A stretch of DNA of 64,000 nucleotides from Promethearchaeota archaeon (GTDB lineage: Archaea > Asgardarchaeota > Lokiarchaeia > Sigyniarchaeales > SOKP01), in contig JAFGOA010000080.1 in the NCBI GenBank assembly GCA_016926735.1, positions 1 to 64,000 of the forward strand, written 5' to 3'. The notes under the pieces are model-generated. The model was not told where the DNA came from and made no database searches. It worked only from the letters and a program-made list of their open reading frames with translations. Shown one piece after another: positions 10,067-58,600 of the stretch. Both the position numbers and the translations under genes were made by a program. How positions within the stretch are numbered: the first letter of the stretch is position 1; each line of letters starts with the position of its first letter.

Positions 10067-10942
10067 TTATTTTATATTCTTCTTTTTTTTAAATTTTATA
10101 TTTAAAATTCGAAAATTTTCTGAAATTAAATTTTTTATTTCTTCTGAACAATTATTAAAAATATTTTCAACTTGATTAGGATCTAATTTATTAATTTGAT
10201 TATAAATTATAAAAAAAAGAATAATTGTAAGAATAGGGGAGATTAAAAGTGATAAGAATAGAAGATAGTTTAGTAATAATCCTTGAGACAATTCGAGATT
10301 AGTTCCGGGTAAATTTAATTCAATTCCAGGAATGATTGAATTTAAGGTAAGGAATGAAAATAAAGTATTCAATATATTAAGAATTAAAAATACAATTAAG
10401 CTGAGATATGATATTAATTTTATAAATTTGATATCAATTATATGATTAAATTGAGTAATATTTTGTTTAGTTTCATCTGAATTTTTATATTCTTTAAGGG
10501 GTGTTATTATTATATGAGAATAATTCCATATATCTAAAAAAATCCAGAAAAATGTAAAAGTATAAGTAAAAATATATAAAATTTGAAAAAATAAGCTATA
10601 ACTGCTAATTAATTGTGGATGATAATAAGATTCTGCACCTATCCAAAATAAAAAGATTAAAAGGAGAAGGGATGAAAAGAAAAAACGGTTAGAATGAATT
10701 TTTTCAGAACCCAAAGGATTATAGTTTAAGATATCACTTTTAATACTAATCCTCCATTTATTATCATTGATTATTTGAAAAATAATAGACAATGAAAAAG
10801 TGATTATTGGAAATATAAAAAGGATAATATTATCCCATTCTTGGGTAATTGTAAAAATAAATAACGTAAAAAATAAAATACAATTTCTTAAAATCTTTTC
10901 AGAGAATAAATCTCTTACAGATAAATATAATTCTTCACTCAT
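10067..10942 (-). CDS. Hypothetical multi-pass membrane protein
   Basis: About six long hydrophobic segments; no family recognised. Confidence 0.7.
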   Translation of the reverse strand: MSEELYLSVRDLFSEKILRNCILFFTLFIFTITQEWDNIILFIFPIITFSLSIIFQIINDNKWRISIKSDILNYNPLGSEKIHSNRFFFSSLLLLIFLFWIGAESYYHPQLISSYSLFFQILYIFTYTFTFFWIFLDIWNYSHIIITPLKEYKNSDETKQNITQFNHIIDIKFIKLISYLSLIVFLILNILNTLFSFLTLNSIIPGIELNLPGTNLELSQGLLLNYLLFLSLLISPILTIILFFIIYNQINKLDPNQVENIFNNCSEEIKNLISENFRILNIKFKKKKNIK

Positions 10943-11033
10943 TTTGATTATTAAACCAACTTAATAAATAAACTTTTATGGAGTTTAATTATATAAACTA
11001 TAAATTAGTAATTAATTTTATCAAGTCTTTTTT

Positions 11034-11038
11034 GGTGA
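11034..11038 (+). promoter_or_regulatory. Shine-Dalgarno-like GGTGA 6 nt before proposed ATC start of xpd
   Basis: GGTGA-AACACT-ATC; GGTGA matches the archaeal SD core. Confidence 0.55.
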
Positions 11039-11044
11039 AACACT

Positions 11045-13021: not shown

Positions 13022-13026
13022 AAATC

Positions 13027-13404
13027 TTAAACAGAAGCAATAACATCAATTTCTATTCTAAGATTTGATTTTGGTAGATTTGAAATTTCCACAGTTGTTC
13101 TTGCTGGAAAATCTTTAATAATACCCTTTTCACGGAAAAATTTCTCATATATTTGATTCATTTTCTCAAAATCATTTATATTTTTTAAAAAAATTGTGAC
13201 TTTTATTATTTTTGAAATATCTGAATTTCCAGCTTCTAAAATATCGCTTATTTTTTCAAAGATATATAACGTCTGTTCTTTAATAGTTTTCATAGTTGGA
13301 TCTGAAATCTGTCCTGATATAAAAATAAGATTACCAATCTTTATTGCATCACTATAAGGCCCAGCTTTATTAGTTTTTATATTAATTGCTTTAATATCAA
13401 CCAT
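13027..13404 (-). CDS. ridA: RidA/YjgF/UK114 family deaminase
   Basis: AGPYSDAI, LIFISGQI, FPARTTVEISNLP, IEIDVIA; ATG 13404 (MVDIK) preferred over TTG 13512. Confidence 0.9.
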   Translation of the reverse strand: MVDIKAINIKTNKAGPYSDAIKIGNLIFISGQISDPTMKTIKEQTLYIFEKISDILEAGNSDISKIIKVTIFLKNINDFEKMNQIYEKFFREKGIIKDFPARTTVEISNLPKSNLRIEIDVIASV

Positions 13405-13629
13405 ATTTATCCTTTTTATTTTAAATTTTTTATATTTATTATATATAATAGAAATTTTTATATAGTTAATATTGAAATGATTGAGAATTGCTCTAGTTGT
13501 CATAACAAACAAATTCTAATTTAATTAAACTTTTATTAATAATATTTTTTTAGAGAATTGGATTGATGTTTTTTAAGAATATATCAAAATTATTTTTAAA
13601 ATAATAAAATAGAATAAAATAGATTCACG

Positions 13630-15408
13630 TTGATAGGCCCAAAAAAGAAAGTCTGGATTTTAACTTTTGAATATACAGGAATTGTAAAAATTGGGGGATT
13701 AGGAGAAGTTCCTACTAATCAAGCTAAATATTTAAAAGATATTTTTGATATAACTGTATTTATACCTTCACATGGTCAAATTGAAAGACTAAAAGAGTTC
13801 TATCTATGGAAAAAATCTCCTTATATTTATCATACGAAAATTGATCCTAGTTTTCTGGGTATTTTTAACCAAGAAGAGGAAATAATGATCTCTTATTATG
13901 AGTTTTTGATGGATGGTGTAAAAATTTTACTGATTACAGGAGAAAATGCTTTTACTAAAAGATTTTTAGATGATAATGCAGTATATAATCCAGAAACGTT
14001 TAATGGTAAAATTATCTTTTTTAGTTTAGGAATACGTGCATATATAAATTATCTCTTATCAAATAATTACATTGGTTTACCATTTTTAGTTCATCTCCAT
14101 GATTATCATGTTGTTCCTGCATATATTAATATTAAACAAGAATTACATAAAAAACAAAAAGATATTTCTTCAATAATAACTCTTCATCTACTTACTCATC
14201 CAAGACAACCTATACAATTTTATGAAAAATGTGGTATAGATAATACACCAATTAAGATACGAATGAAAGAGGAATATAAAAATTATACTATAGAACAGAT
14301 CTTTTCTATATGTGATAATAATTCTATATTTAGAAGTGTAAATTTACCCTCAATTGAAAAAATTGGAGCAATAGTAAGTGATTTAGTAACCACCGTTAGT
14401 GAATCCTATTTAAAATCAGATATCATCCCTAATTTTGGAGCAGAATTAATAGAATTTAAAACTGATTTCATTTGGAATGGATGTGATTGGGATTATGAAG
14501 AAATTAATACTAAAGTTCTTAATAATTTTGGGAATGAAATCCGGGAATTTTTAAAAATACCAATTAATTTAAGTATAACCAGAGAAAATTTAAAGAAATA
14601 TTTACTTACCTATAAAATTGGAAACCTAAATAAAAGTCCATTAATTAACTCAAAAAAAATTCTTGATGTAATTAACGTAATTTCTAATGATAATCCTCTT
14701 ATTAAAAATGGTAATACTAAAGTTTTTGAAGATTCTGGACCATTAGTAATAACTACAGGTAGAATATCTCCTCAAAAAGGTTTCGAAGTAGTATTTGAAT
14801 CTATCTCTGAAGTCATAAAAATATTTCCAAATGCTAAATTCTTATTTCTCGTCCTTCCAACAGAATATAGTTTAAATGAGATACAATATTATGCCTCATT
14901 TGTTAAAACATTTCCAAATAATGTAAGAATAATTTTTGGAATTGCATCAGAGATTTTTTATTTAGCTCATATGGCAGCTGATGTCTACTGTGCTTTATCT
15001 AGATGGGAACCTTTTGGAATAATTGCGCTAGAAGCAATGGCTCTTAAATTACCCATAATTGCTACAAAAGTAGGAGGATTACAAGAATCTATCATTGATA
15101 TAAGAAGTGATAAAGAGAATTGCACAGGATACTTAATAGATAAAGAAACACCAAAGCAATTTACAGAAGCATTAATTTCTTTCTTTCATTTAGCAGAGAT
15201 ATCAAAAAGTGACGATGTCTATAAGACAGAAATTCTCCAAATGATAAATCAAATTCCTGATGAAGTTATAAAATCCAGAGTTATATTAGATCCTCATTTT
15301 TATCAAAAAATCAGAGAAAATTGTTATAATAGAGTACAAAACAATTTTCGTTGGAATATTGTAACTAAAAAACTTATTAAATTGTATAATAGCTTTATTA
15401 ATTATTGA
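13630..15408 (+). CDS. glgA: Glycogen/starch synthase (GT5)
   Basis: KIGGLG ADP-glucose motif, HLHDYH, TTVSESY, GRISPQKG, SRWEPFGIIALEAM. Confidence 0.88.
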   Translation: MIGPKKKVWILTFEYTGIVKIGGLGEVPTNQAKYLKDIFDITVFIPSHGQIERLKEFYLWKKSPYIYHTKIDPSFLGIFNQEEEIMISYYEFLMDGVKILLITGENAFTKRFLDDNAVYNPETFNGKIIFFSLGIRAYINYLLSNNYIGLPFLVHLHDYHVVPAYINIKQELHKKQKDISSIITLHLLTHPRQPIQFYEKCGIDNTPIKIRMKEEYKNYTIEQIFSICDNNSIFRSVNLPSIEKIGAIVSDLVTTVSESYLKSDIIPNFGAELIEFKTDFIWNGCDWDYEEINTKVLNNFGNEIREFLKIPINLSITRENLKKYLLTYKIGNLNKSPLINSKKILDVINVISNDNPLIKNGNTKVFEDSGPLVITTGRISPQKGFEVVFESISEVIKIFPNAKFLFLVLPTEYSLNEIQYYASFVKTFPNNVRIIFGIASEIFYLAHMAADVYCALSRWEPFGIIALEAMALKLPIIATKVGGLQESIIDIRSDKENCTGYLIDKETPKQFTEALISFFHLAEISKSDDVYKTEILQMINQIPDEVIKSRVILDPHFYQKIRENCYNRVQNNFRWNIVTKKLIKLYNSFINY

Positions 15409-43472: not shown

Positions 43473-43901
43473 ATGCCAAAAGGATTATATGCTGCACGAA
43501 AACTTAAAGCAAATAGAAAAAAGTTCCGTTGGTCAAAGACAAAATACAAAAGAAAAAAACTGAAACTAAAACAAAAAGTTGATCCTTTAGAAGGAGCACC
43601 TGCAGCTTCTGGAATCGTTTTAAAGAAGGTTGGAAGAGAAAGTAAACAACCTAACTCTGCAATTAGAAAATGTGTCCGAGTACAATTAAAGAAGAATGGT
43701 AAATCTATAACTGCTTCATTACCTGGAGATGGTGCTTTGAATTTTATCGAAGAACATGACAGAGTTATCGTTGAAGGAATCGGAGGTGCTAAAGGTAGAG
43801 CTGTTGGAGATTTACCTGGAGTACGATGGAAAGTGACTAAAGTTAATGGAGTCAGTCTTGATGCTTTAATAAAAGGTATTAAAGAAAAACCAATGAGATA
43901 A
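43473..43901 (+). CDS. rps12: 30S ribosomal protein S12 (uS12)
   Basis: [25 protein letters not shown]. Confidence 0.98.
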
Positions 43902-44112: not shown

Positions 44113-45981
44113 ATGCCAATAAATTGGAATATAGAAGTAATTTCTGCTCTAATAGGTTTTTTTTTCTTTTTGGGATTTAGCTTGTTATTTCTATATCTAT
44201 CAATAAAAAATAAAAATAAGATTTATTTTTCATTGTTTTTTGTCTTTCTCATTTTTACATTCTTTCATATCCTTGAAGCAATGGCTTACCTTTTTCTCAA
44301 TTTTGAAATTAAACGTTTAAGTGCCATTATGTATTCATTAGGATTGTTTACATTAATACTAATCGTAGATTTCGTTTCTAAAGATAAAATAACTTTATGG
44401 AAAAGTATTTTATCAAGTTTTATAATAGGTTGCACTGTTGTATTAGCATTTATTCCAGAAAATATTGTTCTTTATAATCATGAAATCTTTGGATATCCAA
44501 CTTTAGCTTTTTCTGGGGTTTTAAATTATATTAATATTTTTGCATTATTCCTAGTTATATTTCAATTACTTCTATGGTTTTTTAAAGTATGGAAAAATTC
44601 TCCTTCTGAAATAAAAAACCAAGCATTTTTTCTTTTTATTATAGTCATAACCTTCTTTATTTCTATATTTATTATATATTTAACAGGTTTGTGGTTAATA
44701 TTCCCCCTAGGGTATCTTATTGCAGCAGGGTTAATCTCGATAATAATTGTATTTGTACTAAGATATCCAAAACTCTTACATATTTTATCATTTTCTACAT
44801 ATAGGATCATAGTAATTTCAAATATTTCTGGAAACCTATTATTTAATTTATCATGGAATCTTAAAAGTGAAAATCCTGATGAAGAACAAATAATACTTGC
44901 CAAATGGATACCAATTATCCAACACTTAGATATTAAATTCGATAATTCTATAAAAGTATCCGAAATAATACTTAAAAATAATATATTACATTTTAAACGT
45001 GGAGAATATATAACCGCCATTTTTCTCTCTAAAACATCTACTTTTGCCCTTAAAGATGTTTTAAATAACTTTGTTGAAGGTTTTGAGAAAAAATATAACT
45101 TATTGCTCAAAACAGGTATGGATAATAGCTCTTATTATTGTGATGCTATTGAATTAATCGATAAATTTTTTCCTTTAGGTATTATATCACCAATAAATTC
45201 TGATGATTCTTTAAGTAATTATTTGGAAGTTCTAATAAAACAGCGTACTGATAAATTAAAGAAATTAAGTCAAGAATATAAAGAAGCTAATAGATTAAAA
45301 TCACTCTTTATTGCTTCGATGAGTCATGAACTACGTACACCGCTCAATTCTATTATAGGGTTTTCGGAATTAATTCTCTCAGATCCTTTTAATCATTTGG
45401 ATGACACATTAAAGGATTATATCCAATGTATATCTGAAGAAGGGATCTATTTATTGGATCTAATAAATAGAATACTTGATATTTCTAAAATTGAAGCTGG
45501 AAAACTTGAAATATATCCTACTGAATTTGAATTAAAGGATCTAATAGAATCTATAACACAAATGTTATCAGTGAAAATCAAAGAGAAAAATTTAAAATTA
45601 ATCTATAAAATACCAGATTCTATAATTCTTTTTTCTGACATAAATAGAGTAAGACAAATTTTGATAAATTTGATTCAAAATGCAATAAAATTCTCAGATA
45701 AACCAGCTAATATAAAAATTGAAGTGGAATTAAAAGAAAAATTTGTAGAAATTCATATAATTGACTATGGAATAGGGATTTCAAAAAATAATCTTAATAA
45801 ATTATTTCAACCTTTTCAACAAATTGATATGTCTGACTCAAGAAAATATAGTGGTACTGGATTAGGTTTATATCTCTCTAAAAAGATTGTTAAGCTTCTT
45901 GGTGGAAAAATTTACGCTAAAAGTGAATTTGGTAAAGGAAGTGATTTTTATTTTACTATTTTAAAAGAACTTAAGTTTTAA
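44113..45981 (+). CDS. Membrane sensor histidine kinase: 7TM, longin-like domain, HisKA, HATPase
   Basis: Seven hydrophobic segments; MSHELRTPLNSIIGF H-box; NLIQNAIKF, DYGIGI, GTGLGL. Confidence 0.9.
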   Translation: MPINWNIEVISALIGFFFFLGFSLLFLYLSIKNKNKIYFSLFFVFLIFTFFHILEAMAYLFLNFEIKRLSAIMYSLGLFTLILIVDFVSKDKITLWKSILSSFIIGCTVVLAFIPENIVLYNHEIFGYPTLAFSGVLNYINIFALFLVIFQLLLWFFKVWKNSPSEIKNQAFFLFIIVITFFISIFIIYLTGLWLIFPLGYLIAAGLISIIIVFVLRYPKLLHILSFSTYRIIVISNISGNLLFNLSWNLKSENPDEEQIILAKWIPIIQHLDIKFDNSIKVSEIILKNNILHFKRGEYITAIFLSKTSTFALKDVLNNFVEGFEKKYNLLLKTGMDNSSYYCDAIELIDKFFPLGIISPINSDDSLSNYLEVLIKQRTDKLKKLSQEYKEANRLKSLFIASMSHELRTPLNSIIGFSELILSDPFNHLDDTLKDYIQCISEEGIYLLDLINRILDISKIEAGKLEIYPTEFELKDLIESITQMLSVKIKEKNLKLIYKIPDSIILFSDINRVRQILINLIQNAIKFSDKPANIKIEVELKEKFVEIHIIDYGIGISKNNLNKLFQPFQQIDMSDSRKYSGTGLGLYLSKKIVKLLGGKIYAKSEFGKGSDFYFTILKELKF

Positions 45982-45990: not shown

Positions 45991-46353
45991 TTATAGATAT
46001 TGTCTCAGTTTTTCCTTAAAATCTAAAACTCTTATTGGTTTTGTGATATATTCATTAAAACCAGCATTTAATATTCGTACTTCATCACCTTTCATAGCAT
46101 AAGCAGTAACCGCAAGTATTGGGATAGATTTAAACCTTTCAATTTTTCTTAATTCTTGACAGATTTCTATCCCTGTCATCTTTGGTAACCTAATGTCAAG
46201 AATAATTAGATCAGGACTACCAGATTTTATAAGTTCTAATCCTAAATCGCCCTCCACTTCTTCAAAAACTTCTATTTCAGGAAATTGTTTCAGAATCGCC
46301 TTATATAATTTCATATTTTTTGGATCATCTTCAACAATATATACCTTTTTCAT
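45991..46353 (-). CDS. Single-domain response regulator, DivK-like
   Basis: IVEDD, LIILDIRLP, AVTAYAMKGD, YITKPI. Confidence 0.93.
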   Translation of the reverse strand: MKKVYIVEDDPKNMKLYKAILKQFPEIEVFEEVEGDLGLELIKSGSPDLIILDIRLPKMTGIEICQELRKIERFKSIPILAVTAYAMKGDEVRILNAGFNEYITKPIRVLDFKEKLRQYL

Positions 46354-46590: not shown

Positions 46591-48015
46591 ATGTCAAATT
46601 CATCAAAGACAATAATCAAGTATTTCTGTGATAGATTTTTAAACTTAGAATACTATCCTGAAAACATTAAAACCATTTTAGATCTTCCTTTAGACAAATT
46701 AAAAGATACAAAGAAAGAAGAAATTTCAATATTAAACAATATTAATATTAATACTATTCGAGATTTTGCTTCTATTGATATGTCAATTTATGATACATTG
46801 TTAGAGTCATCAACCCTTACTGAAAATACTTTAAAAAAGCTTTATATTGCATCAAAACTAATTGCAAATGCTTGGGGAAAAAGAACTACCTACCTTAAAA
46901 AACCTCAAATGAAAGTAATTGTTGCCGGTTTAGATTATGCTGGAAAAACTTCTTTAATCAATAGATTAATGAATGATTATAATTATAATGATGTAATTAA
47001 TTTAGAACCAACTGTTGGAGTTAATGTAGAAGAATTCAAATCAGAAAGATTAAATCTGATTCTATGGGATTTGGGAGGACAAAAAAATCATATTGATGAA
47101 TATCTTGAAGAACCTGAAAGATTTTTTATTCAAATGGATGTATTAATTTTCGTTATAGATTCCCAAGATGATGTAAGATATGATATAGCAATAAAATATC
47201 TTAATGATTTAATAGAAATTTTAGGATATTTAGATGAATTTCCTTTTATTCTTGTACTGCTAAACAAAGCCGATACTGATATAATAAATGATCCTGATTA
47301 TCAAATCAAATTGGAATATATTACTGAAAAAGTAACTGATTTATTCATAGAACATGAAAAATCATGGATTGTGGAAATTATTCCTACAAGTATATATAAT
47401 TTTTATTCTAATACCCCTGAAATTGCAAAAAATATTAAAAATATATTTTCAAAAGATATCAGTCAACAAAAAGACGATAAACTACCAGAAATTGAAAAAA
47501 AGGTGCAAAAAATACTAGATATAAATCTCCAATTTATGGATAAAATCTCAGCTGATCTTGCGGAAATAAAAAAGATTATGTTTAGAACACTACCAACGGC
47601 TATTTCGGGTTCATTATTTGAAGTTCCATTTCAAAAAGTTTCTTTTGAAGAGCAGCCTGAAAAAAAAAAGAAAAAGAAAAAACTAAAGCCATCCAAAAAA
47701 ACTTCTATCCCTCAAGTAATCCCTTCAATTAAATTACCCCAAAAAACTCAAACTACACTACTTGATCAAATAAAAAATGTCCAATTAAAACCTCCAGCTA
47801 TATCTTCTGATCCAAATAATCCCCCAATGGCCCCACCAAAAACTCAGAGAATTGAAGGATTGAATCCTCCACCAAAATCTACAGAAAAACTCACATCTAA
47901 ATTAGAAAGTTCTCAAGAATCAAATCAAGAACCCCCTATTAATCGTGCCCAAACAAGGCAACAAATAATATCAGAATTGAAAGATTTGTTTGTTAAAAGA
48001 GGTATTGTTGGATAA
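46591..48015 (+). CDS. Arf-like GTPase with N-terminal HhH-like domain and polybasic/WH2-like/Pro-rich C-terminal tail
   Basis: GLDYAGKTS, EPTVGVNVE, LWDLGGQ, FVIDSQD..R, LNKAD. Confidence 0.88.
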   Translation: MSNSSKTIIKYFCDRFLNLEYYPENIKTILDLPLDKLKDTKKEEISILNNININTIRDFASIDMSIYDTLLESSTLTENTLKKLYIASKLIANAWGKRTTYLKKPQMKVIVAGLDYAGKTSLINRLMNDYNYNDVINLEPTVGVNVEEFKSERLNLILWDLGGQKNHIDEYLEEPERFFIQMDVLIFVIDSQDDVRYDIAIKYLNDLIEILGYLDEFPFILVLLNKADTDIINDPDYQIKLEYITEKVTDLFIEHEKSWIVEIIPTSIYNFYSNTPEIAKNIKNIFSKDISQQKDDKLPEIEKKVQKILDINLQFMDKISADLAEIKKIMFRTLPTAISGSLFEVPFQKVSFEEQPEKKKKKKKLKPSKKTSIPQVIPSIKLPQKTQTTLLDQIKNVQLKPPAISSDPNNPPMAPPKTQRIEGLNPPPKSTEKLTSKLESSQESNQEPPINRAQTRQQIISELKDLFVKRGIVG

Positions 48016-48295: not shown

Positions 48296-48937
48296 ATGCA
48301 TTCATTCAATGAATTAAATGATCTTCTTGATAATTTACCTTTTATCGTTATAATTGGAAAATATGATCATATACTTGGTCCTAGAGCTATTTTCTCTCCA
48401 ATTAAGATCGTTGATGATCAATTTATACGAAATCTACTTCGCGATGCTTTAAATACAAAAAATAAATTTGTAATTCTTAATTATGATGATTTCTATTCTC
48501 AAGTATGTAAGGTAGATGTTAAGGATGAAACTGCAAGAGGGAAAAAACAACTATATGCTATTATCTTACTAAGGCATGTCGATTATCCATTGATCCCAAC
48601 GGTCTATTTTCAAAGGATCGAAATGATATTTAGAAAACTAGGGGAAAAAAAAATACTCATTGATGATGAATCCATTTTTAATAAATTTGCTGAGGAAATT
48701 CAAAATATTTATCTTGAGAAAAATGAAATAATTCCGCTAGAATCTGCAAATCTTGAAATCAGAAGTGAGATTAATACAATAAGGGGTTTTTGTGAATTAA
48801 TTCTTGAAGAAAAAGACAAATCAGGTAAATTATCTGATGATTTAGTAATAAGATATGTCGAAATTATATTAGATTCATGTGATGATATAATTGAAACAAT
48901 AGAAAAGAATATGCATAATCAATTACAGGGAAATTAA
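48296..48937 (+). CDS. uDENN/folliculin-like longin domain fused to degenerate HisKA
   Basis: KYDHILGP and VKDETARG..QLYAII; C-terminal LEIRSEINTIRGFCELIL mirrors HELRTPLNAIIGFSELIL. Confidence 0.6.
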   Translation: MHSFNELNDLLDNLPFIVIIGKYDHILGPRAIFSPIKIVDDQFIRNLLRDALNTKNKFVILNYDDFYSQVCKVDVKDETARGKKQLYAIILLRHVDYPLIPTVYFQRIEMIFRKLGEKKILIDDESIFNKFAEEIQNIYLEKNEIIPLESANLEIRSEINTIRGFCELILEEKDKSGKLSDDLVIRYVEIILDSCDDIIETIEKNMHNQLQGN

Positions 48938-48959: not shown

Positions 48960-49853
48960 ATGACCAATAAAAAAAAAATCATATTAGTAGGTCCTCCTGC
49001 CGCGGGGAAGACTACAATAACAAAAGTATTTTTCCAAAAATCTAACCCTAAAATTTTATTGGAAAAACCTTTAGAACCAACGAGAGGTGTACATACATCA
49101 CTTTTTTCATTATTTAACTCAGAATTAGGAATCTTTGACTTGGCTGGACAAGAAAATCAAAACTGGTTTTCAAAAGATAATGATATTTTTGAACATTCTA
49201 ATATAATAACTTGTATTTTTGATATAAATAGTTCGTTAGAAAACATAACTTCATTTTTAAATAACATAATTGATATAAAAGCAAAATTTGATTCCCTCTC
49301 AGAGTGCAAAATATTTAGTTTTCTCCATAAGATTGACACTGTAGACAATTCATACTTAAATGAGAAAATTAATGCAATTAAAAATTATTACAAAAGAAAA
49401 TTTCCTTCTAATGGATTTTATATGGAAATATTTGGCACTTCTATTGCTAAAGAAAATTATTATCCTACATTTCATATTCTTTCAAACATATTAATTTCTA
49501 TTTATCCAGAGGATAATGCATCAATAAATTTGTCTGAATATGAAAATATAAAACAAGATCTAAAAATTATTGCAAATTGTAAATTATCTGTTAAATATAA
49601 GGTTCTTAATCTCTCGAATAAATTTAATCTTAGTTTTGATGTTCTTAAATTCCATTTAGAGAGATTAGATAAGCTAGGAATGATTGAATATTTATCATAT
49701 AAGAATTTTATTCGATTAACTTATAGAAGTGAATTATTAAAAAAAGATCTAAAAAAAGAAATCGATGATATGGATAAAATCAGGGAAGATAATGATATTA
49801 AACTTTTCAATATTTTTCTAAATCTTAATAAAATCCCTTTATCAGATTTTTAA
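48960..49853 (+). CDS. Rag/Gtr-like GTPase with C-terminal winged helix
   Basis: GPPAAGKTT..VFF, LEPTRG, FDLAGQE, FLHKID, GTSI; wHTH pattern LSNKFNLSFDVLKFHLERLDKLGMIE...IRLT. Confidence 0.82.
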   Translation: MTNKKKIILVGPPAAGKTTITKVFFQKSNPKILLEKPLEPTRGVHTSLFSLFNSELGIFDLAGQENQNWFSKDNDIFEHSNIITCIFDINSSLENITSFLNNIIDIKAKFDSLSECKIFSFLHKIDTVDNSYLNEKINAIKNYYKRKFPSNGFYMEIFGTSIAKENYYPTFHILSNILISIYPEDNASINLSEYENIKQDLKIIANCKLSVKYKVLNLSNKFNLSFDVLKFHLERLDKLGMIEYLSYKNFIRLTYRSELLKKDLKKEIDDMDKIREDNDIKLFNIFLNLNKIPLSDF

Positions 49854-50020: not shown

Positions 50021-52255
50021 ATGAACATTAATATTGTTAAAATTCTTTCAATTTTAGATCATATTGAAATTTTAGATTATATAAGAACAATTTTAAATTC
50101 TTCAAATAGATTCAATTATGAACTTTTTAGTTGTAATTCAATTAAAAAAGGAATGGATTTTATATCGAATTATCAGATAGATATAATAATTCTAGGATTA
50201 TATCTTCTTGATAGTAATGGATTTGAAACATTTTATAATCTAAGATTAAAAACAAGAAATATACCTATAATTCTTATAGTTTCTCAAGAAGATGAAGGAA
50301 TAGCAAAAAATGCTGTTCAATTAGGTGCCCAAGAGTATTTAATTCAAGAACAAATAAATCCAGAATTACTGGAACATTATATTTTTACAGCAATTACTAG
50401 ACATAATATGATGCTCACAATTGAATCTTTAGCTAATAAAATTCAAGAAAATGAACAATATTTAAAACAGATTATAGAAAAAAACATTGATTCAATTATA
50501 ATCACAGATAAATGTGGTAAAATTCGTTATGTAAATCCATCAGCTGAAAAACATTTTAATAAAACCAAGGAGGAATTGTTAGGACAATTATTTAAAGATT
50601 CTTCATTTAAGGAGAGAAAAATAGGTTTCAATATTATTCAAAATAATGAACTTACATCAATTTCAGAGGTCCACACTGTAGAGATAGAATGGGAAGGGCA
50701 ACCCGCATATTTTTTCTCAATAAGAGATATTTCAGAACGTAAACAAATTGAGCATATGTTAAAAGAATCTGAAAAAAAATATACTCTTTTATTCGAGAAA
50801 TCACCTCATCCTATATTAATTTTAAATTTAGAAGGTTTTATAATAGATAGTAATTCTGTAGTAGAAGAATTGATTGGATTTTCAAAAAGCCAGATTATTA
50901 ATCAAAGATATGAAAATCTAATTCTATTTCCAAAACAATATCTCCATGTTTTTAATATGATTTTTAATGCTCTAAAAGAAAATAAAATTCCTGATCCTTT
51001 AATTTTGAATATAAATAGAGAATTTAAAAAAGATCTATGGCTCAATATGAATTTTTCATTAATTAATTTAGATAATCAAAAGTTAATTTTCCTTTTAATT
51101 CAAGATATTACTGAAATACGACAATCAAAACAAGAAGTAAGAATACTTGAGCAAACTTTGCATGAAATGAATGCTCTAATAGAAAATGCTCCTTCAGCTA
51201 TTTTTTTACTACATCAAAATGGAAAAATATTAAGAGCGAATAATAAATCAAAAGAATTATTTGGTTATGAAGAAGAAGAATTTCTTAATTCTAAAATTTT
51301 GGATCTGTTTGATCCCGAATATTTAGAAATTGTAAAAAAACACTATACAAATGATATTTATGAATCATTAAAAGATAACTCTTTAGAAGCAAAAATCATA
51401 AAAAAAAATGGAGAATTTATCAATGTAGATATAGTATCAAATATCATAAAAATTGCTGATAATATAATAATACAATCATTTATTTCTGATATAACCTCAA
51501 GAAAAGATTTCGAAAGAAGTAGAGAACAATTATTGGATCAATTGATAAAATCTCTTGAGTATAAATCAAAATTTTTTGCTGCGATGTCACATGAATTGAG
51601 AACTCCTCTGAATGCAATCATAGGATTTTCGACATTATTAATTGATGGAGGATATGGTGTATTAAATGATGATCAAAAGGATTATTTAAACGATATATAT
51701 ACTGCTGCTGAGCATTTAAATGGATTAATTAATTCTATATTAGATCTCTCAAAAATTGAAATTGCTAAATTTAAATTAGAAAAAGAAGAATTTCAATTAT
51801 ATCCCATCATGCAACAAATTCATTCAATATTTAAACCCATCTATATGAAAAAAAAATTATATTTTAATTTGGAAAATGTTGATCAACATACTGTAATATT
51901 TGGAGACCAAATGAGATTCAGACAAATACTTTATAATTTAATTGATAATGCTATAAAATTTACAAGTAAAGGTGGTATAGAGGTAAAGGGATTCGAAAAA
52001 TATGATCATTGGGAATTTCAAATTATAGATTCTGGTGTTGGGATTGATAAAGAAGATTATGATGTTGTTTTTAGAGAATTTGGGAGGATTGAAAATGATC
52101 TTACCAAAGATGTAAGTGGTTCTGGCATTGGATTAGCTTTAACTAAAAGGTTAGTTGAACTTCATGGTGGAGAAATATGGTTTGAAAGTCAAAGAGGAAA
52201 AGGAACTACATTTTATTTTACGATTCCAAAAAAAAAAGGTGATAATCATAAATAG
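50021..52255 (+). CDS. Cytoplasmic histidine kinase: pseudo-receiver, 3 PAS, HisKA, HATPase
   Basis: REC-like N-terminus; PAS ends RDISERK, QDITE, SDITSRK; MSHELRTPLNAIIGF; NAIKFT; GSGIGL. Confidence 0.92.
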   Translation: MNINIVKILSILDHIEILDYIRTILNSSNRFNYELFSCNSIKKGMDFISNYQIDIIILGLYLLDSNGFETFYNLRLKTRNIPIILIVSQEDEGIAKNAVQLGAQEYLIQEQINPELLEHYIFTAITRHNMMLTIESLANKIQENEQYLKQIIEKNIDSIIITDKCGKIRYVNPSAEKHFNKTKEELLGQLFKDSSFKERKIGFNIIQNNELTSISEVHTVEIEWEGQPAYFFSIRDISERKQIEHMLKESEKKYTLLFEKSPHPILILNLEGFIIDSNSVVEELIGFSKSQIINQRYENLILFPKQYLHVFNMIFNALKENKIPDPLILNINREFKKDLWLNMNFSLINLDNQKLIFLLIQDITEIRQSKQEVRILEQTLHEMNALIENAPSAIFLLHQNGKILRANNKSKELFGYEEEEFLNSKILDLFDPEYLEIVKKHYTNDIYESLKDNSLEAKIIKKNGEFINVDIVSNIIKIADNIIIQSFISDITSRKDFERSREQLLDQLIKSLEYKSKFFAAMSHELRTPLNAIIGFSTLLIDGGYGVLNDDQKDYLNDIYTAAEHLNGLINSILDLSKIEIAKFKLEKEEFQLYPIMQQIHSIFKPIYMKKKLYFNLENVDQHTVIFGDQMRFRQILYNLIDNAIKFTSKGGIEVKGFEKYDHWEFQIIDSGVGIDKEDYDVVFREFGRIENDLTKDVSGSGIGLALTKRLVELHGGEIWFESQRGKGTTFYFTIPKKKGDNHK

Positions 52256-55022
52256 CAGTAAATATAGTATTCAAGATATTTTTAGTTCTTTTTTAGATAA
52301 TTCTTTAGATATAATTTATATATTTGATATTAATGGGAAATTTATTGATATTAATGATATTGCTTTAAAATTATTTGAATATAATAGAGAAGAGCTCTTT
52401 AATAAATCTTTTGTAGAAATATTGGATAAAGGACAAGATGAAAAATTTTTTACTCTATTAGACAATCTCAAAGCTAATGTTAAAAAATCCAATTATATAA
52501 ATTATAAAGTTAACACTAAGAATGGTAATATTATATTATTAGATACATATACTATACCGATAATGAATAATAATCTCATAGCAATTATCAATATATCTAA
52601 GATTATATCCAATAAAGATCATATTTATAAAGATTCTAATAGACATGAATTTAATTTTAGCAATATTTTTGATCATATTCCTGTTGGATTTCATTTATAC
52701 TCATTAAACGCAAAAGATCAATTAATTTTAAAAGATTCAAATCCCGCAGCTAATGAAATTCTTGGGATTGACTCCTCAAAATTACTATTAAAACCAATTG
52801 AAGAAATATTTATTTCCTATAAAGAATCCGATATTCTTAAAAGATATATAAACATTGCTAAAAATGGTGGTATAGAGAAATGGGATCATATTGAATATCA
52901 CCTTGATGCTATTGAAGGAGCATATGAAATAATTGCATTCCAATCATCTCCAAATAATATAGTAGTTTCTTTTGTAGATATAACTAAACGAATAACATAT
53001 GAAAAAAAATTAGAGGAATCTGAATCAGAATTACGTAATTTATCTGAAGAATTGGAAAATAAAATTTCGAGAAGAACAAAAGAATTATATGAATCAGAAG
53101 AATTATATAGAAATCTATTTGAGAACATCCCTAATGCTATTATTCTAATGGATATGAATAAAAATTTTCTAATAACAAATCCTGCATTTAATAAAAATTT
53201 TGGTTATAAAGGAGATGAGTTTATTGGCAAAAATATACAAGAAAATTGTTTTTGCACAGAACCATCTTTAAAAAAAATCTCTGACTCATTATTAAAAATA
53301 GAAAAAGATAAGAAACCAGTAATGTTTGAAGCAGAAATATATAGAAAAGATAATACTATAGCAAAGATTTTTGTTCAATTAAATCTAATTGAATTTGAAG
53401 AATTAGAGTTAATATTACTCATTATACAAGATATTTCCAATTTAAAATTTGAACAAGAAAAAGCTAAACTATATTTAGAAACTGCAGGTGTTATAATTGT
53501 AGCTTTAGATAAAAAAGGTAATATTAATTTACTAAATAAAAAGGGTTGTGAAGTATTAGAATACGAACAAAATGAACTAATTGGTAAAAATTGGTTTAAT
53601 AATTGCATTCCTATAAATTACAGAGATAAAATAAAAAAAATTTTTGAAGATATTATTGAAAATAAGAATGTAAATATAGAATTTTATGAGAGTCCTATTA
53701 TTTCTAAAAGTGGTAAAGAAAAGATTATAGCATGGCATAATACCATTCTATATGATAATAATAACGACGTTTTAGGAACATTGAGTTCTGGAGAAGATGT
53801 AACTGAAAGAAAAAAAATGGAAGTAGAATTAAGAGAATCAGAAATTATATACCGTAAATTATTTGAATCACATATTGATGGAATTATTATGATGGATCTT
53901 AATGGAATGTTTATCGATGCTAATAAAACTTTCTTAGATATGAGCGAATATAAATTAGCACAATTAAAAAAATTCTCTATTTTTGATATAACACCAGAAA
54001 AATGGTATGATGATATAAAAACTATAATAGATAGTAAATCTAAAACATTGTCTAGAGAATTCGATATAGAACTTAAGAAAGAAAATGGAACTATCATTCC
54101 AATTAATTTAAAATTATGGACAAAAACTGATATATATAATGAACCTTCTGGTTTCTGGGCTATTATAAGAGATATTTCAAAAAAAAAACAAGATGAATTA
54201 TTACAAATAGAATTTAGGAAACGTTTAGAAAAAGAAGTTAAAAAAAGGACAAAAGAACTCAATAAAGCTTTAGAAAAACAAAGATTATTTCAATCAGAGA
54301 TTATTAAAGCTTCTAAATTCAAATCTGAGTTTCTCGCTACTATGTCACATGAATTAAGAACACCATTAAATGCAATAATTGGATTTACAGAATTAATGTT
54401 AGATGAATCATTTGGTACATTAAACAAAGAACAGTATGAATATATGATGGATATAAAAACCTCCGCTGAACATCAATATGATATGATAAGTAGCATTCTA
54501 AATATTACTCAAATAGAATCAGGTCAAGTAATTCTAAATAAACAACAATTTTCTATAAATACTATCATTGATCAAGTTATATCTACAATCAAACCTATGT
54601 ATACAAAAAAAAAAATACAATTTATCGTTGAAGGATTGGAATCAGATATAAAAATATTAGCTGATCCTTTAAGAATAAGAGAAATACTCATTAATCTATT
54701 AACTAATGCAATAAAGTTTACAATCGAAGGGAAAGTCAAATTAATTATTAAAGAATTATTTGATAAATGGGTTTTTAAAGTAAGAGATGAAGGAATCGGA
54801 ATCGCTCAAGAAGATTTTGATATTATTTTTCGAGATTTTTCAAGAGTTGATTCTGCTTATGTAAGATCTACGCCAGGTACAGGATTGGGACTTTCTTTAA
54901 CAAAAAGATTAGTTGAATTACATAATGGAACAATAAATTTTACGAGTGTTTTAGGAGTAGGGACAACTTTTACATTTACTATTCCCAAACCTTCAGAAGA
55001 ATACGATTTAGATTCCTATTAA
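52239..55022 (+). CDS. Cytoplasmic multi-PAS (about 5) histidine kinase
   Basis: PAS ends VDITKR, QDIS, EDVTERK, RDISKKK; MSHELRTPLNAIIGF; GTGLGL; start likely GTG 52239 or ATA 52248 rather than TTG 52155, which lies deep inside the upstream gene. Confidence 0.92.
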   Translation: MIIINSSKYSIQDIFSSFLDNSLDIIYIFDINGKFIDINDIALKLFEYNREELFNKSFVEILDKGQDEKFFTLLDNLKANVKKSNYINYKVNTKNGNIILLDTYTIPIMNNNLIAIINISKIISNKDHIYKDSNRHEFNFSNIFDHIPVGFHLYSLNAKDQLILKDSNPAANEILGIDSSKLLLKPIEEIFISYKESDILKRYINIAKNGGIEKWDHIEYHLDAIEGAYEIIAFQSSPNNIVVSFVDITKRITYEKKLEESESELRNLSEELENKISRRTKELYESEELYRNLFENIPNAIILMDMNKNFLITNPAFNKNFGYKGDEFIGKNIQENCFCTEPSLKKISDSLLKIEKDKKPVMFEAEIYRKDNTIAKIFVQLNLIEFEELELILLIIQDISNLKFEQEKAKLYLETAGVIIVALDKKGNINLLNKKGCEVLEYEQNELIGKNWFNNCIPINYRDKIKKIFEDIIENKNVNIEFYESPIISKSGKEKIIAWHNTILYDNNNDVLGTLSSGEDVTERKKMEVELRESEIIYRKLFESHIDGIIMMDLNGMFIDANKTFLDMSEYKLAQLKKFSIFDITPEKWYDDIKTIIDSKSKTLSREFDIELKKENGTIIPINLKLWTKTDIYNEPSGFWAIIRDISKKKQDELLQIEFRKRLEKEVKKRTKELNKALEKQRLFQSEIIKASKFKSEFLATMSHELRTPLNAIIGFTELMLDESFGTLNKEQYEYMMDIKTSAEHQYDMISSILNITQIESGQVILNKQQFSINTIIDQVISTIKPMYTKKKIQFIVEGLESDIKILADPLRIREILINLLTNAIKFTIEGKVKLIIKELFDKWVFKVRDEGIGIAQEDFDIIFRDFSRVDSAYVRSTPGTGLGLSLTKRLVELHNGTINFTSVLGVGTTFTFTIPKPSEEYDLDSY

Positions 55023-55037: not shown

Positions 55038-56339
55038 TTATTTTGATTTTTTTCTTAAATAATAATAATCATTAATTTTTCTTCTTATTTTTCCCATAAG
55101 AATAATTAGTTTGTTCACATCCATTGATTCTGAAATCAAGATTAAATTTTTGATTGAAAATTTTTGAAGATTAAGATAATTTAAAATAGTATTAATTGAT
55201 TTTGAGCTTGAAATTATAAGATGTGCTATATTATCATTTAAAACCATATTTTCAAATGATTGAGTTATCTGTGCTATCATTTTATGAATATGATTTATTA
55301 AGATCGTATTAAAATCTCTTGACATAGATTGTATTATTATTGAATTGTTATTATTTGTGATATAACACATAGATTTTGGAGTATTAATAAAAGATTCATC
55401 TAGTATTTTTTTTATCTCAAAAGAATCTTCAGAAAAATTACTAATAATACTATAAAAAGCGTTGTAAAGATTATATATTAATTTTGGATATATACTTGTA
55501 AAATATATTAAACCATTAAAATCTTTTTTAATCTCTTGAAGTACGTTATCTCTTTTATTTTCCTCTATTAAATCTATTTTATGAAGAAAAAGGATAAATT
55601 CAACTTTATTATTTTGATTCTTTATTATATTCCTGATTTTTTCTATGTCTGTGAATATCATTTTTTTTTGAGAATTCCATAAAGATACATCAAAAAGATA
55701 TATAACTATATCTGTATTTTCAAATGCTAAAGTCTGTTCCATTGTTTCATCATTAAGTAGATCTTCAATTTCCTGACCGGAGGTATCAAATAAACCTAAT
55801 TTTGCATCTAACCAAGAATAAACTGAAGGTGTAATCCCTCGAGTTGGTTCTAATGGATTATATAATAATTTTCTTGGATCTTTTCCCTCAAATATTATTT
55901 CTTTGATAGTACTTTTACCAGTTCCAGCCCTTCCCAAAAGTAATATTTTTTGTGCTGTTCTTTTTTGAAAAAATTTATCCATATTATCATAGAAAAACCT
56001 TTTTCTTTCTTCTCTATGTTTGCTAAACAATGCTTTCCCGAAATCTAGGAGATCTTGTTTTAATTTATATATATTTTCCTTTTCTATATCTTCAATAACA
56101 ATAACAATAACTTCATATCCTACCTGTGCTACTCTATTTTTATCACAATAGCTAATAATCGTTTGATTATTAAAAGTTACTTCAAGTAATTCTTCTTTAT
56201 TAAAATCTTCATTAAAGGCGTGGGACATATATATTTTTTGGGTTAAAGAGTTTGAAATATCAAATCTTTCTGGATATTTTAAATCTAAAATAGACCCAAT
56301 TTTTTGATCCCAAATAAAGACAGCAATACCTTCAGGCAT
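55038..56339 (-). CDS. Longin-like domain, Rag/Gtr-like GTPase and roadblock-like C-terminal domain
   Basis: N-term GIAVFIWDQKIGSILDLKYP; GRAGTGKSTIKEIIF, LEPTRG, FDTSGQE, FLHKIDLI, FTSIY; C-terminal alpha/beta domain as in Rag GTPases. Confidence 0.82.
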   Translation of the reverse strand: MPEGIAVFIWDQKIGSILDLKYPERFDISNSLTQKIYMSHAFNEDFNKEELLEVTFNNQTIISYCDKNRVAQVGYEVIVIVIEDIEKENIYKLKQDLLDFGKALFSKHREERKRFFYDNMDKFFQKRTAQKILLLGRAGTGKSTIKEIIFEGKDPRKLLYNPLEPTRGITPSVYSWLDAKLGLFDTSGQEIEDLLNDETMEQTLAFENTDIVIYLFDVSLWNSQKKMIFTDIEKIRNIIKNQNNKVEFILFLHKIDLIEENKRDNVLQEIKKDFNGLIYFTSIYPKLIYNLYNAFYSIISNFSEDSFEIKKILDESFINTPKSMCYITNNNNSIIIQSMSRDFNTILINHIHKMIAQITQSFENMVLNDNIAHLIISSSKSINTILNYLNLQKFSIKNLILISESMDVNKLIILMGKIRRKINDYYYLRKKSK

Positions 56340-56492: not shown

Positions 56493-56864
56493 ATGACTAA
56501 AAATGTATATGTTATTGAAGATAATGAAAAGAATATGAAATTATTCAAAGCTATCTTAAATTTAATTCCTAACATTCAAATCTTTACAGAAACTCAAGGA
56601 GATTCAGGATTAGAACTTATAAAATCAGGTAATCCTGATCTTATTATTCTTGATATTCAATTACCCAAATTGAGTGGGATTGATATAACAAAGGAATTGA
56701 GAAAAATTGAAAGGTTTAAATCTGTTCCAATTATCGCTGTGACTTCTTTTGCTATGAAAGGTGATAGAGAAAGAATTCTTAAGGCAGGAATAGATCAATA
56801 CATATCAAAACCTATAAAAGTACAAGAATTTCGAGAAAAAGTTACTGAAATTTTAAAAATATAA
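56493..56864 (+). CDS. Single-domain response regulator, DivK-like (paralog of 45991..46353)
   Basis: VIEDNEKNMKLF, LIILDIQLP, AVTSFAMKGDRERI, YISKPI; GAGGT upstream. Confidence 0.93.
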   Translation: MTKNVYVIEDNEKNMKLFKAILNLIPNIQIFTETQGDSGLELIKSGNPDLIILDIQLPKLSGIDITKELRKIERFKSVPIIAVTSFAMKGDRERILKAGIDQYISKPIKVQEFREKVTEILKI

Positions 56865-57021
56865 TCATATATATATTATCTAAAGAGATAAAAATTAATT
56901 ATAATTAAATTGGAATAGTACAATTTTATAATGAATTCCTTACATATAAATAATTTTAATAGATTTTAATAGTAAATCTATTAATATAATTAAAATTAAA
57001 TTTAAAAAAAACTTGGTTAAT

Positions 57022-57822
57022 ATGGAACAAAAAATAATTGTTTTGGGTTTAGATAATGCTGGAAAAACTTCCTTATTGTCTAGATTCGGAGGAACTTTAG
57101 GAATAGACGAACTTGCATCTTTAGAACCTACTAGAGGCGTAATTAGAAGAGAAATTGATACAAAAGATATGAGGTTCTTTATATGGGATTTTGGAGGTCA
57201 GGAAGATCATAGGATCCAATATATACAAGATCCTGAACATTATTTTATAGGAATAGATTTAATTATATATATTATTGATATAAAAGATGATAAAAGATAT
57301 AATGAAAGCATTTCTTATCTTGAAAAGATATTAAACCTCGTGAAAAAAATGGGTCAAAATAGATATATCCTTATCTTTATACATAAATGTGATCCTGAAA
57401 TTAAGGGTAAAAAAGAAACTATTTCTAATATTGATTTTTTGAAAAAATCTATAGAACCCCTTCTAATTGAAAAAGATTTTGAATATGAGATTTTTCTAAC
57501 TTCTATATACTCTGGATTCCCAAAAGAACCAAAATTTGTAAATTTAGTAAAGCAAATTATCGATGGTCAACCAATTAAAGATGGAACTGTCGATTTAAAA
57601 TTAAATCGAATGGCAGAAGTTTTAGAATCAACGATGAACGCTGTGATTAAAATTAGTTCGAATATAATGGACATCGAGGATAGGATAAGAAATATTGAAA
57701 AATCCACCGTATATAGCAATAAAAAATTGCCTGAGATTGATTCAAAAATTAAAGATATGGAAACCCTGAAAAATAATACAATATCACAATTAAAAGAAAT
57801 TTTTGTTCGAAAAGAAGAATAA
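57022..57822 (+). CDS. Arf-like GTPase with C-terminal coiled coil
   Basis: LGLDNAGKTS, EPTRG, IWDFGGQ, IHKCD, TSIY; ATG 57022. Confidence 0.88.
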   Translation: MEQKIIVLGLDNAGKTSLLSRFGGTLGIDELASLEPTRGVIRREIDTKDMRFFIWDFGGQEDHRIQYIQDPEHYFIGIDLIIYIIDIKDDKRYNESISYLEKILNLVKKMGQNRYILIFIHKCDPEIKGKKETISNIDFLKKSIEPLLIEKDFEYEIFLTSIYSGFPKEPKFVNLVKQIIDGQPIKDGTVDLKLNRMAEVLESTMNAVIKISSNIMDIEDRIRNIEKSTVYSNKKLPEIDSKIKDMETLKNNTISQLKEIFVRKEE

Positions 57823-57982: not shown

Positions 57983-58600
57983 ATGAGTGAAAAAGAAAAC
58001 GATATCAAATTATTAGATCGATGGTCTTATGATGATGTTGAGATCAAAGATTGGACACTTGAGAGATATATTAATTTAAAAAAAATTATCATACCTCACT
58101 CATGTGGAAGACATGAAAAAAAGACTTTTTGGAAAACTTCAAAAGTATCAATCATAGAGAGATTTGTTAATCGATTATTATCTCCTGGATTTATAGCAAC
58201 CAAAACTAAAGGACGTAAGAGTTCTTATCATCAAGGTAAAAAAAGTCTTATTTTAAAGACAGTAATGAATGCTTTCATTCTTATAGAATTGAAAACAGGT
58301 AAAAATCCTATTCAAGTATTGGTTGATGCAATTTCAAATACTGCTCCACGAGAAGAAATTACAAGAATTGCAATGGGAGGTATATCATATAGCTCTGCTG
58401 TAGATATTGCTCCTCAAAGACGTATAGACTTAGCAATTAAATATTTAGTCCAAGCTATAGGTACATCTGCTCATGGAAATATTAGAACTTTTGAAGAAGC
58501 AATAGCTCAAGAATTAATTCAAGCGGCTAAAAACAGCCAAGATTCAAAAGCTGTTAAAAAGAAGGATGAAATCGAGAGAATTTCCTTATCTGCAAGGTAA
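57983..58600 (+). CDS. rps7: 30S ribosomal protein S7 (uS7)
   Basis: PHSCGRH, IIERFVN, NPIQVLVDAI.N.APREE, AVDIAPQRRID, KKDEIERI..SAR. Confidence 0.97.
   Translation: MSEKENDIKLLDRWSYDDVEIKDWTLERYINLKKIIIPHSCGRHEKKTFWKTSKVSIIERFVNRLLSPGFIATKTKGRKSSYHQGKKSLILKTVMNAFILIELKTGKNPIQVLVDAISNTAPREEITRIAMGGISYSSAVDIAPQRRIDLAIKYLVQAIGTSAHGNIRTFEEAIAQELIQAAKNSQDSKAVKKKDEIERISLSAR

Follow-up and report, generated by a model that had tools for sequence, protein, structure and literature searches.

What does a longin domain related to those that regulate eukaryotic Rag GTPases do when it is joined, in an archaeon, to a histidine kinase hairpin that has lost its histidine? The question is raised by a gene in a 64,000-nucleotide (nt) stretch of DNA, here called the window, which is positions 1 to 64,000 of the forward strand of contig JAFGOA010000080.1 (GenBank assembly GCA_016926735.1) from a Promethearchaeota archaeon, an Asgard archaeon of the Loki type. 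The window has about 25% G+C, and its source genome comprises 3.88 Mb in 238 contigs and is 99% complete. The protein encoded by the gene has 213 amino acids. Its N-terminal domain is predicted to be a longin, apparently of the class that acts as GTPase-activating proteins (GAPs) and is represented by folliculin and NPRL2; it carries the GP motif of this class and an arginine in the loop that joins strands 4 and 5, both conserved. Its C-terminal hairpin is derived from the dimerization and histidine phosphotransfer (DHp) domain of HisKA kinases; the phospho-acceptor histidine is lost and the ATPase domain is absent, for which reason we refer to it as a pseudo-DHp.

A sequence-only reading of the window had proposed a longin fused to a His-less, ATPase-less HisKA-type hairpin beside a Rag-type GTPase, and the analysis supports this observation as real. 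The open reading frame (ORF) at 48296-48937 is separated by 22 nt from the next one on the same strand, at 48960-49853, as that reading had it. The segments to which it had drawn attention are also where it placed them: KYDHILGP occupies residues 22-29, VKDETARGKKQLYAII residues 75-90 (from nt 48518), and LEIRSEINTIRGFCELILEE starts at residue 153 (nt 48752). The claimed lack of an HATPase domain is borne out by the end of the protein at residue 213 and by the Pfam search, in which no HATPase match was found, and an AlphaFold2 model contains both a longin fold and a two-helix hairpin. A six-frame search of the genome returned a single strong match to the protein, the gene itself (E = 1e-94). 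The gene and its parts are the following.

48296 to 48937, forward strand: gene of the longin and His-less DHp protein (ORF of 213 amino acids, one copy in the genome)
48335 to 48718, forward strand: longin domain, residues 14-141 (AlphaFold2 model, VIA-align, Pfam Folliculin)
48359 to 48382, forward strand: KYDHILGP, residues 22-29, that is, Tyr-Asp, three residues and the GP motif that opens strand 2 (invariance, model)
48533 to 48541, forward strand: A80-R81-G82 in the strand 4-5 loop, candidate arginine finger (invariance in a 31-sequence alignment, model)
48728 to 48925, forward strand: pseudo-DHp hairpin, helices at residues 145-176 and 181-210 (AlphaFold2 model, hhalign, Pfam HisKA below its threshold)
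48752 to 48754, forward strand: L153, at the position of the phospho-acceptor His (aligned to the kinase His)

Consider the N-terminal domain. The AlphaFold2 model, calculated with the 31-sequence alignment, has a mean predicted local distance difference test score (pLDDT) of 84.4 and a predicted template modeling score (pTM) of 0.67, and it places strands at residues 17-24 and 28-33, a helix at 41-53, strands at 58-62, 66-76 and 84-94, and helices at 102-140. In the model, this order of strands and helices is the longin topology. When the model was compared with the PDB by Foldseek, five matches had E values of at most 1e-3 (2.5e-4 to 9.5e-4), all of them chains of 362-370 residues in GATOR1 entries, and they were followed by FLCN-FNIP2, the SEA complex, DENND10 and a solved Lokiarchaeota longin. 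VIA-align, run against 48,161 representatives, ranked 8fw5_B of a GATOR1 entry highest (Z = 12.6), followed by 8yqg_B, a Lokiarchaeota Roadblock-Longin protein (12.2), 6nzd_H of an FLCN-FNIP2 entry (11.9, 15% identity) and 8adl_S of the SEA complex (11.8), while the longins of VAMP7, CPLANE, AP sigma, Lst4, SMCR8-C9orf72 and Mon1-Ccz1 gave Z values of 8.2-10.0; the tables of both searches carry entry titles, and the subunits are assigned from chain lengths and ranges. The Pfam family Folliculin (PF11704) matches all 31 aligned members at E values of at most 0.1, the best being 7.6e-5. The sequence-only reading had spoken of a folliculin/DENN-like longin, and the first half of that label is upheld by the model, the fold searches and Pfam, while the second half is not: the protein has a longin domain and no DENN module. 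Neither a DENN nor an NPRL2-type C-terminal domain follows it, the C-terminus being a helical hairpin of 66 residues.

The GP motif is located where a GAP longin would have it. G28 and P29 open strand 28-33, and in the relevant section of PMC12290439 the motif, described there as specific to GAP longins and shared by some Asgard longins, is placed either at the close of the loop that precedes strand 2 or where that strand begins. In the model, R81 is situated in the loop of residues 77-83 that connects strands 66-76 and 84-94, within the segment matched by Pfam Folliculin (residues 74-114), and from the topology this loop and the loop between strands 1 and 2 would be at the same end of the sheet. 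The GP motif and R81 are both strongly conserved. Among the 183 family members in hand, where a member is counted at a position when it has a residue in that column, G28 is Gly in 174 of 174, P29 is Pro in 173 of 174 and R81 is Arg in 169 of 173. Invariant residues of the 31-sequence alignment include K22, Y23, D24, L27, G28, P29, A80, R81 and G82 in the longin and, further on in the protein, R156, N160, T161, I162, G164, F165, C166 and C195.

Consider now the C-terminal hairpin. An alignment of residues 143-213 was compared by hhalign with 61 kinase DHp segments, taken from the window and from 49 loci that carry the gene, and the two were aligned over 50 columns with a probability of 80% and a P value of 1.4e-5. 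The observed score was 30.9; 200 column shuffles gave 11.6 +/- 2.4 with a maximum of 19.3, so that none of the 200 reached it, and the reversed query gave 12.3. The kinase residues 'SH' are opposite 'NL' of the hairpin and L153 is thereby opposite the kinase His, which reproduces the alignment with the H-box of the neighboring kinases that the sequence-only reading had made by eye. Helix 1 of the hairpin retains the H-box at positions +1, +3, +4, +7, +11, +12, +14 and +15, counted from the lost His. The same relationship is seen from other directions. A wider family profile had, among its best matches in the PDB, the kinase DHp chains 7n0e_A (E = 0.039) and 4jas_A (E = 0.065), with His opposite Leu, and in a six-frame profile search of the source genome the matches other than the gene itself were confined to the HisKA regions of the kinases encoded from 44113 (E = 9e-4) and 52155 (E = 2.8e-3). 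In the ESM Atlas, a language-model search with residues 143-213 found HisKA on 28 of 30 named clusters with a score of 0.95, and two distant members of the family match Pfam HisKA at E values of 0.0015 and 0.013. A Pfam match to DUF5327 (residues 122-176, E = 6.9e-4) was rejected as chance helical similarity, as it falls short of its cut-off and is found in just 2 of the 31 members.

At the position of the kinase His, the 177 members with a residue in that column have Leu in 137, Met in 27, Ile in 5, His in 4 and other residues in 4. Three full-length members with His in the column, P0127, P0129 and P0144, are all distant, and the presence of the histidine in them supports the descent of the hairpin from a true HisKA domain. 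The protein ends three residues beyond the hairpin, and Pfam finds no HATPase match there. The mean column identity is 0.82 for helix 1, 0.73 for the longin domain and 0.58 for helix 2, and helix 1 is the best-conserved segment of the protein.

The hairpin has one further feature. Each of its helices has one cysteine that is invariant in the 31-sequence alignment, C166 (48791-48793) and C195 (48878-48880). The pair is Cys/Cys in 162 of 183 members and substituted in the MK-D1 clade, and it may form a redox or metal site within a dimer.

How widespread is this architecture? With the protein as query, 259 of 404 candidate relatives matched at E values of at most 1e-3, and with the family profile 278; where their source names are given, all are called 'hypothetical protein', and the bins from which they come are Promethearchaeota or Lokiarchaeota, apart from two that are otherwise labeled. 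In a search of 1.84 billion cluster representatives, only 27 clusters matched at E values of at most 1e-3. The 49 loci were taken from species genomes, and the cultured strain MK-D1 is included among them. Across the phylum, 30 of 301 sampled genomes match at E values of at most 1e-10, all of them from a single order, in which they fall into two families (26 of 68 and 3 of 7 genomes, plus the source genome itself), and none of 225 genomes in 28 other families does; ten candidates were scored per genome, and the positives are therefore a lower bound. One copy per genome is reported for the family, and the genome of the His-retaining P0127 holds a second, canonical copy. No NCBIfam family matched the 213-residue protein, and longer fused forms of 414-2000 residues were absent at E values of at most 1e-3 from a search that, by its own caveat, gives weak evidence on this point.

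Some members have a different build. P0133 and P0135, of about 390 residues, consist of a PAS domain, a His-less DHp-like helix, a longin domain and a C-terminal helix, and when the PAS-fused helix is compared with the kinase H-box helix by hhalign, the P value is 2e-6 for P0135 and 3.7e-6 for P0133 and P0135 together. In these PAS-fused variants, among which G129:C258:701-1270 (locus L063) is listed alongside P0133 and P0135, the kinase-like helix precedes the longin. P0127 (L053:1492-2118, forward strand) and P0129 have kept the 'SH' and are without the arginine of the longin loop. P0127 has a receiver-PAS kinase gene on either side and no GTPase gene in 3.6 kb, and the canonical copy in its genome (G389) is flanked by GTPase genes; this is a single case. 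Apart from these, a metagenomic protein of 556 residues, P0140, has six tandem HisKA-like repeats with Phe at each His position, and Pfam HisKA matches it over six stretches at an E value of 1.6e-37.

The surroundings of the gene contain both kinds of possible partner. Neighboring genes, designated below by the first of their window coordinates, are the following.

44113 to 45981, forward strand: membrane histidine kinase with HisKA and HATPase domains (Pfam)
45991 to 46353, reverse strand: single-domain receiver (Pfam Response_reg, E = 8.2e-25)
46591 to 48015, forward strand: Arf/Rag-like GTPase of 474 amino acids (Pfam Gtr1_RagA, E = 2.3e-22; Arf, E = 2.5e-22)
48960 to 49853, forward strand: Rag-type GTPase of 297 amino acids with a C-terminal domain of three helices and a hairpin (Pfam Gtr1_RagA, E = 1.1e-16)
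50021 to 52255, forward strand: receiver-PAS-HisKA-HATPase kinase (Pfam)
52155 to 55022, forward strand: multi-PAS histidine kinase (Pfam, ORF list)
55038 to 56339, reverse strand: GTPase of 433 amino acids with a Rag-type G domain (Pfam Gtr1_RagA, residues 131-345, E = 5.6e-19)
56493 to 56864, forward strand: single-domain receiver (Pfam Response_reg, E = 5.6e-26)
57013 to 57822, forward strand: Arf/Rag-like GTPase with a coiled-coil tail (Pfam Arf, E = 2.7e-24; Gtr1_RagA, E = 1.2e-21)

Four of the 22 Gtr1_RagA matches in the genome are thus inside this 11-kb cluster, alongside three kinases and two receivers. That the gene directly downstream encodes a Rag-type GTPase, as the sequence-only reading had held, is agreed on by Pfam, Foldseek and VIA-align. 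The best Foldseek match of the 48960 protein is Gtr1 (4arz_A, E = 1.9e-13), and in VIA-align its G domain matches RagD (2q3f_B, Z = 22.3) and LokiRagO (8yl2_A, Z = 21.4), other GTPases reaching at most 17.8; these searches were made with the whole protein, and the matches are filled by the G domain. In 14 orthologues, the P-loop, DLAGQE and HKID are invariant. Since the GTPase keeps DLAGQE, it has the glutamine and would need an arginine supplied in trans. Its tail (residues 191-268) is modeled as three helices, a beta hairpin and a helix, a winged-helix-like order that probably takes the place of the roadblock of eukaryotic Rag proteins. The genes at 48296 and 48960 are probably co-transcribed. 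Among 42 loci with at least 1 kb downstream of the longin gene, 24 have an orthologue of 48960 within 200 nt on the same strand, and four shorter loci likewise show the start of one. The other GTPase, 46591, has an orthologue no more than 600 nt upstream of the longin gene in 25 of 41 loci, and in 24 of these 25 it is divergently oriented; full-length orthologues of 55038 are present in 18 of 49 loci.

Two-component genes are also regular neighbors, with kinase-like matches in 41 and receiver-like matches in 35 of the 49 loci. They also surround the gene in the cultured strain MK-D1, which has a closed genome. Here (L042:9514-15088), a receiver (9514-9909), the longin/pseudo-DHp gene (9989-10621), a PAS kinase of 1061 residues (10673-13858) and a GTPase (13937-15088) follow each other in the same orientation, 51-79 nt apart. 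In the MK-D1 clade, the gene directly upstream of the longin gene is an orthologue of receiver 56493. GTPase genes of MK-D1 are, as stated in a passage of PMC10933270, generally found outside operons with longin genes, a rule that most loci of the present family do not follow.

Three observations concern the neighborhood itself. The TTG start listed for kinase 52155 makes its gene overlap the preceding kinase gene by 101 nt (52155-52255), and the true start probably lies further downstream. GTPase 55038 has extensions of about 120 residues before and about 90 residues after its G domain, and the N-terminal one starts with Trp-Asp, three residues and Gly-Ser, which is the spacing of Tyr-Asp, three residues and Gly-Pro in the 48296 protein; judged by this spacing, the extension may be a second, non-catalytic longin able to pair with that of 48296. 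The signaling cluster, 13.7 kb in all, sits between the genes for the ribosomal proteins S12 (43473-43901) and S7 (57983-58600), with the genes for RpoA', RpoA'', L30e and NusA upstream of it. Of five relatives that were checked, four (G019, a member of the same genus, G207, G040 and G147) have the S12 and S7 genes no more than about 300 nt apart, and in the fifth (G030) the two genes are on different contigs; the separation in the window results either from a lineage-specific insertion or from an assembly join.

From these observations a mechanism can be put together. The longin domain would be an arginine-finger GAP, or at least a regulator specific for one nucleotide state, and its likely client would be the co-operonic Rag-type GTPase 48960, the Arf/Rag-like GTPase 46591, or both. 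The pseudo-DHp would dimerize as a four-helix bundle and in this way create a platform of paired longins, for which eukaryotic GAP longins depend on a partner subunit. Its conserved H-box helix would in addition dock a component of the cluster, whether a single-domain receiver or a PAS kinase through its DHp, and kinase signaling would thereby set the state of the GTPase. The link to the two-component genes is supported because of the gene content of the cluster, the MK-D1 array, the PAS-fused variants and the conservation of helix 1. That the protein is, in its entirety, a GAP longin with a dimerizing pseudo-DHp that docks a two-component partner and passes kinase input to a GTPase seems to us, on the evidence of sequence and gene order, about evenly balanced between right and wrong.

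A stronger version can be formulated, in which a phosphorylated single-domain receiver binds the hairpin, or a PAS kinase pairs its own DHp with it, and the phosphorelay directly switches an arginine-finger GAP for the Rag-type GTPase; this we hold to be unlikely. Should it apply, the system could be an archaeal, two-component-fed forerunner of nutrient-to-Rag signaling, an extrapolation that we consider equally doubtful, and the relatives that keep the histidine and lack the arginine, together with the fusions of PAS, pseudo-DHp and longin, would be surviving intermediates of the rewiring. The interpretation offered in the sequence-only reading, in which the pseudo-DHp binds receivers or heterodimerizes with kinases and gates GAP activity, is partly supported; for each of these three roles the basis is gene order and conservation, from which we infer that the hairpin may have them.

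A number of results weigh against the proposal that a GAP longin is here under the control of a HisKA-derived hairpin. For the longin domain, the fold does not in itself single out the GAP class, in that 8yqg, a solved longin of Lokiarchaeota, scores as high as the GAP longins do (Z = 12.2). The Pfam Folliculin match of the protein (residues 74-114, E = 0.0022) has 18.2 bits and is below the cut-off of 23.3. PDB sequence searches with the protein and with two family profiles retrieved no chain of folliculin, NPRL2 or SMCR8 at E values up to 10, and for this reason R81 is a candidate equivalent of the published arginine fingers by its loop position in the model and not by residue-level superposition. 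It is also stated in a passage of PMC10933270 that most longin domains serve as platforms for guanine nucleotide exchange factors (GEFs) rather than as GAPs. For the hairpin, the Pfam HisKA match (residues 154-203, E = 0.011) has 16.2 bits, below the cut-off of 26.9, and such a match at an E value of at most 0.1 is found in only 5 of the 31 members. Superposition of the hairpin on HK853 (5uht_A) gives a VIA-align Z of 8.3 and a root-mean-square deviation of 2.2 over 69 residues, which is no better than the values for unrelated hairpins (Z = 8-9.2). A hidden Markov model of the C-terminal 71 residues found no convincing kinase among 8617 ORFs of the source genome, the best kinase match having an E value of 0.0095 and being out of register and the H-box match an E value of 0.22. 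Finally, the GTPase gene is not adjacent in 18 of the 42 loci.

The proposal must also be compared with explanations that use the same facts differently. One of them is that the hairpin is a dimerization module and nothing more, in which case a homodimeric longin GAP or GEF would act constitutively on the neighboring GTPase, while kinases and receivers operate independently of it. DHp domains are dimerization modules, the histidine and the ATPase domain are both gone, and the immediate partner of the gene is a GTPase and not a two-component gene in 24 of 42 loci, all of which would suit such a protein. Yet helix 1 keeps nearly the whole H-box except for the His and the Pro, its identity of 0.82 exceeds what a coiled-coil interface needs, and two-component genes are found near that of the longin in most loci and are its immediate neighbors in the MK-D1 clade, so that we regard pure dimerization as a serious possibility but not a likely one. 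Information could also flow in the reverse direction, with the pseudo-DHp pairing with or capping the DHp of a cluster kinase, which it inhibits or re-targets, and with the longin as a sensor of which nucleotide the GTPase has bound; in that case the protein would be an anti-kinase or an adaptor. Such a role is pointed to by the analogy with DivL that the sequence-only reading had drawn, and it would account for an H-box surface that is conserved without its histidine and for a family profile that, in its own genome, matches the cluster kinases only. A pure sensor, however, leaves the near-invariant GP motif and arginine without explanation, and the reverse flow appears improbable.

The conservation that follows the lost histidine, at +1 (Glu or Gln), +3 (Arg), +4 (Ser or Thr) and +7 (Asn), allows still another thought, namely that the hairpin has kept a HisKA activity that does not depend on the histidine, for instance as a phosphatase for phosphorylated receivers that is tethered to a GTPase regulator. 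The phosphatase motif of HisKA domains involves +1 and +4, but the residue at +1 is Gln, and not acidic, in 142 of 177 members, and we judge a phosphatase very improbable. What remains to be weighed is the longin itself, which could promote nucleotide exchange on the GTPase as a GEF, or serve it as a passive platform, with R81 in a structural role. This would agree with the statement in PMC10933270 that dimers of longin and roadblock domains are mainly GEFs and with the GEF roles proposed for DENN/longin modules of Asgard archaea in a section of Liu et al. (bioRxiv 10.1101/2020.10.19.343400), and it is opposed by the report, in a passage of PMC12290439, that the GP motif and the arginine of a neighboring loop are specific to GAP longins and absent from longins that are not GAPs. 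As both are near-invariant here, a GEF or a passive platform seems quite improbable.

What would it mean for the longin/pseudo-DHp protein to work as proposed? The family is a compact, single-copy and strongly conserved pair of regulator and GTPase that is present in a cultured strain, MK-D1, and a prokaryotic two-component system appears to provide its input. Rag GTPases and longin GAPs such as folliculin and GATOR1 form the core of amino acid sensing in eukaryotes, and the family may bear on how this module arose. If GAP activity that depends on the arginine, and control of it by a receiver or a kinase, were demonstrated, what is now a published genomic inference would become a tested mechanism. 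Should the hairpin prove to have no binding partner, the protein would amount to no more than a homodimeric longin regulator of Asgard archaea.

How, then, does the protein relate to systems that are already known? In eukaryotes, NPRL2-NPRL3 of GATOR1 acts on RagA/B and C9orf72-SMCR8 acts on Arf. FLCN-FNIP2 acts on RagC/D with Arg164 as its finger, as described in a section of PMC9473554. Among solved structures these longin GAP complexes have, together with the Lokiarchaeota longin 8yqg, the closest longin fold, and a GP motif and a loop arginine, here a candidate finger, are found in them and in the present protein, next to which a GTPase of Rag/Arf type, the putative client, is encoded. They differ from it in having a DENN or NPRL2-type C-terminal domain, where the present protein has a kinase-derived tail, and the identity is 7-15%. 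With the DHp of class I kinases (HisKA, PF00512), for example HK853 (5uht, 4jas), the protein shares the hairpin and the H-box except for the His and the Pro; it deviates from them in having Leu or Met for His in 164 of 177 members, in lacking an HATPase domain, and in a hairpin that follows a longin rather than a sensor or HAMP domain. In the actinobacterial conservons (CvnA, kinase-like; CvnB, roadblock; CvnC; CvnD, small GTPase; PMC13343842) and in MglA/MglB, a protein of the roadblock/longin superfamily, a kinase-like protein and a Ras-like GTPase are likewise brought together. There, however, each component is a protein of its own, a roadblock takes the role of regulator in place of a GAP-type longin, and the GTPase belongs to a type other than Rag; in the present protein the longin and the kinase-derived piece form one chain.

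Closer still are two accounts of Asgard archaea. Liu et al. (10.1101/2020.10.19.343400) describe, in a section on the subject, NPRL2-like longin proteins fused to two-component domains and propose that growth control in Asgard archaea stays centered on two-component systems with 'eukaryotic' regulators. Their fusions resemble the present protein in that an NPRL2-type longin is joined to prokaryotic two-component domains; the main text does not contain the term 'histidine kinase', and its passages on the fusions describe neither a His-less HisKA hairpin nor an operon with a Rag-type GTPase. Longins of FLCN/SMCR8 type with a GP motif and an arginine finger are described in a passage of a 2025 paper in Traffic (PMC12290439), in which they are suggested to be GAPs and the question is asked whether Rag or ArfR proteins are their clients. 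Those longins and the present one have in common a GP motif where strand 2 begins, a nearby arginine and a suggested GAP activity on clients related to Rag or Arf, while the reference protein is there heimdallarchaeial, the sequence logo is drawn from 14 others and 'histidine kinase' does not occur in the main text. In the openly accessible literature, to which the search was directed and which leaves subscription journals outside its scope, no paper naming a His-less HisKA fused to a longin was found. The general kind is thus already published, both as NPRL2-like longins fused to two-component domains and as Asgard longins with the GP motif and the arginine, and the coupling of kinase signaling to the GTPase is here inferred. 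What is added to it by the present locus and its family is the His-less state of the hairpin, the GTPase as operon partner, the relatives that retain the histidine, and the forms in which a PAS domain is fused in front of the kinase-like helix.

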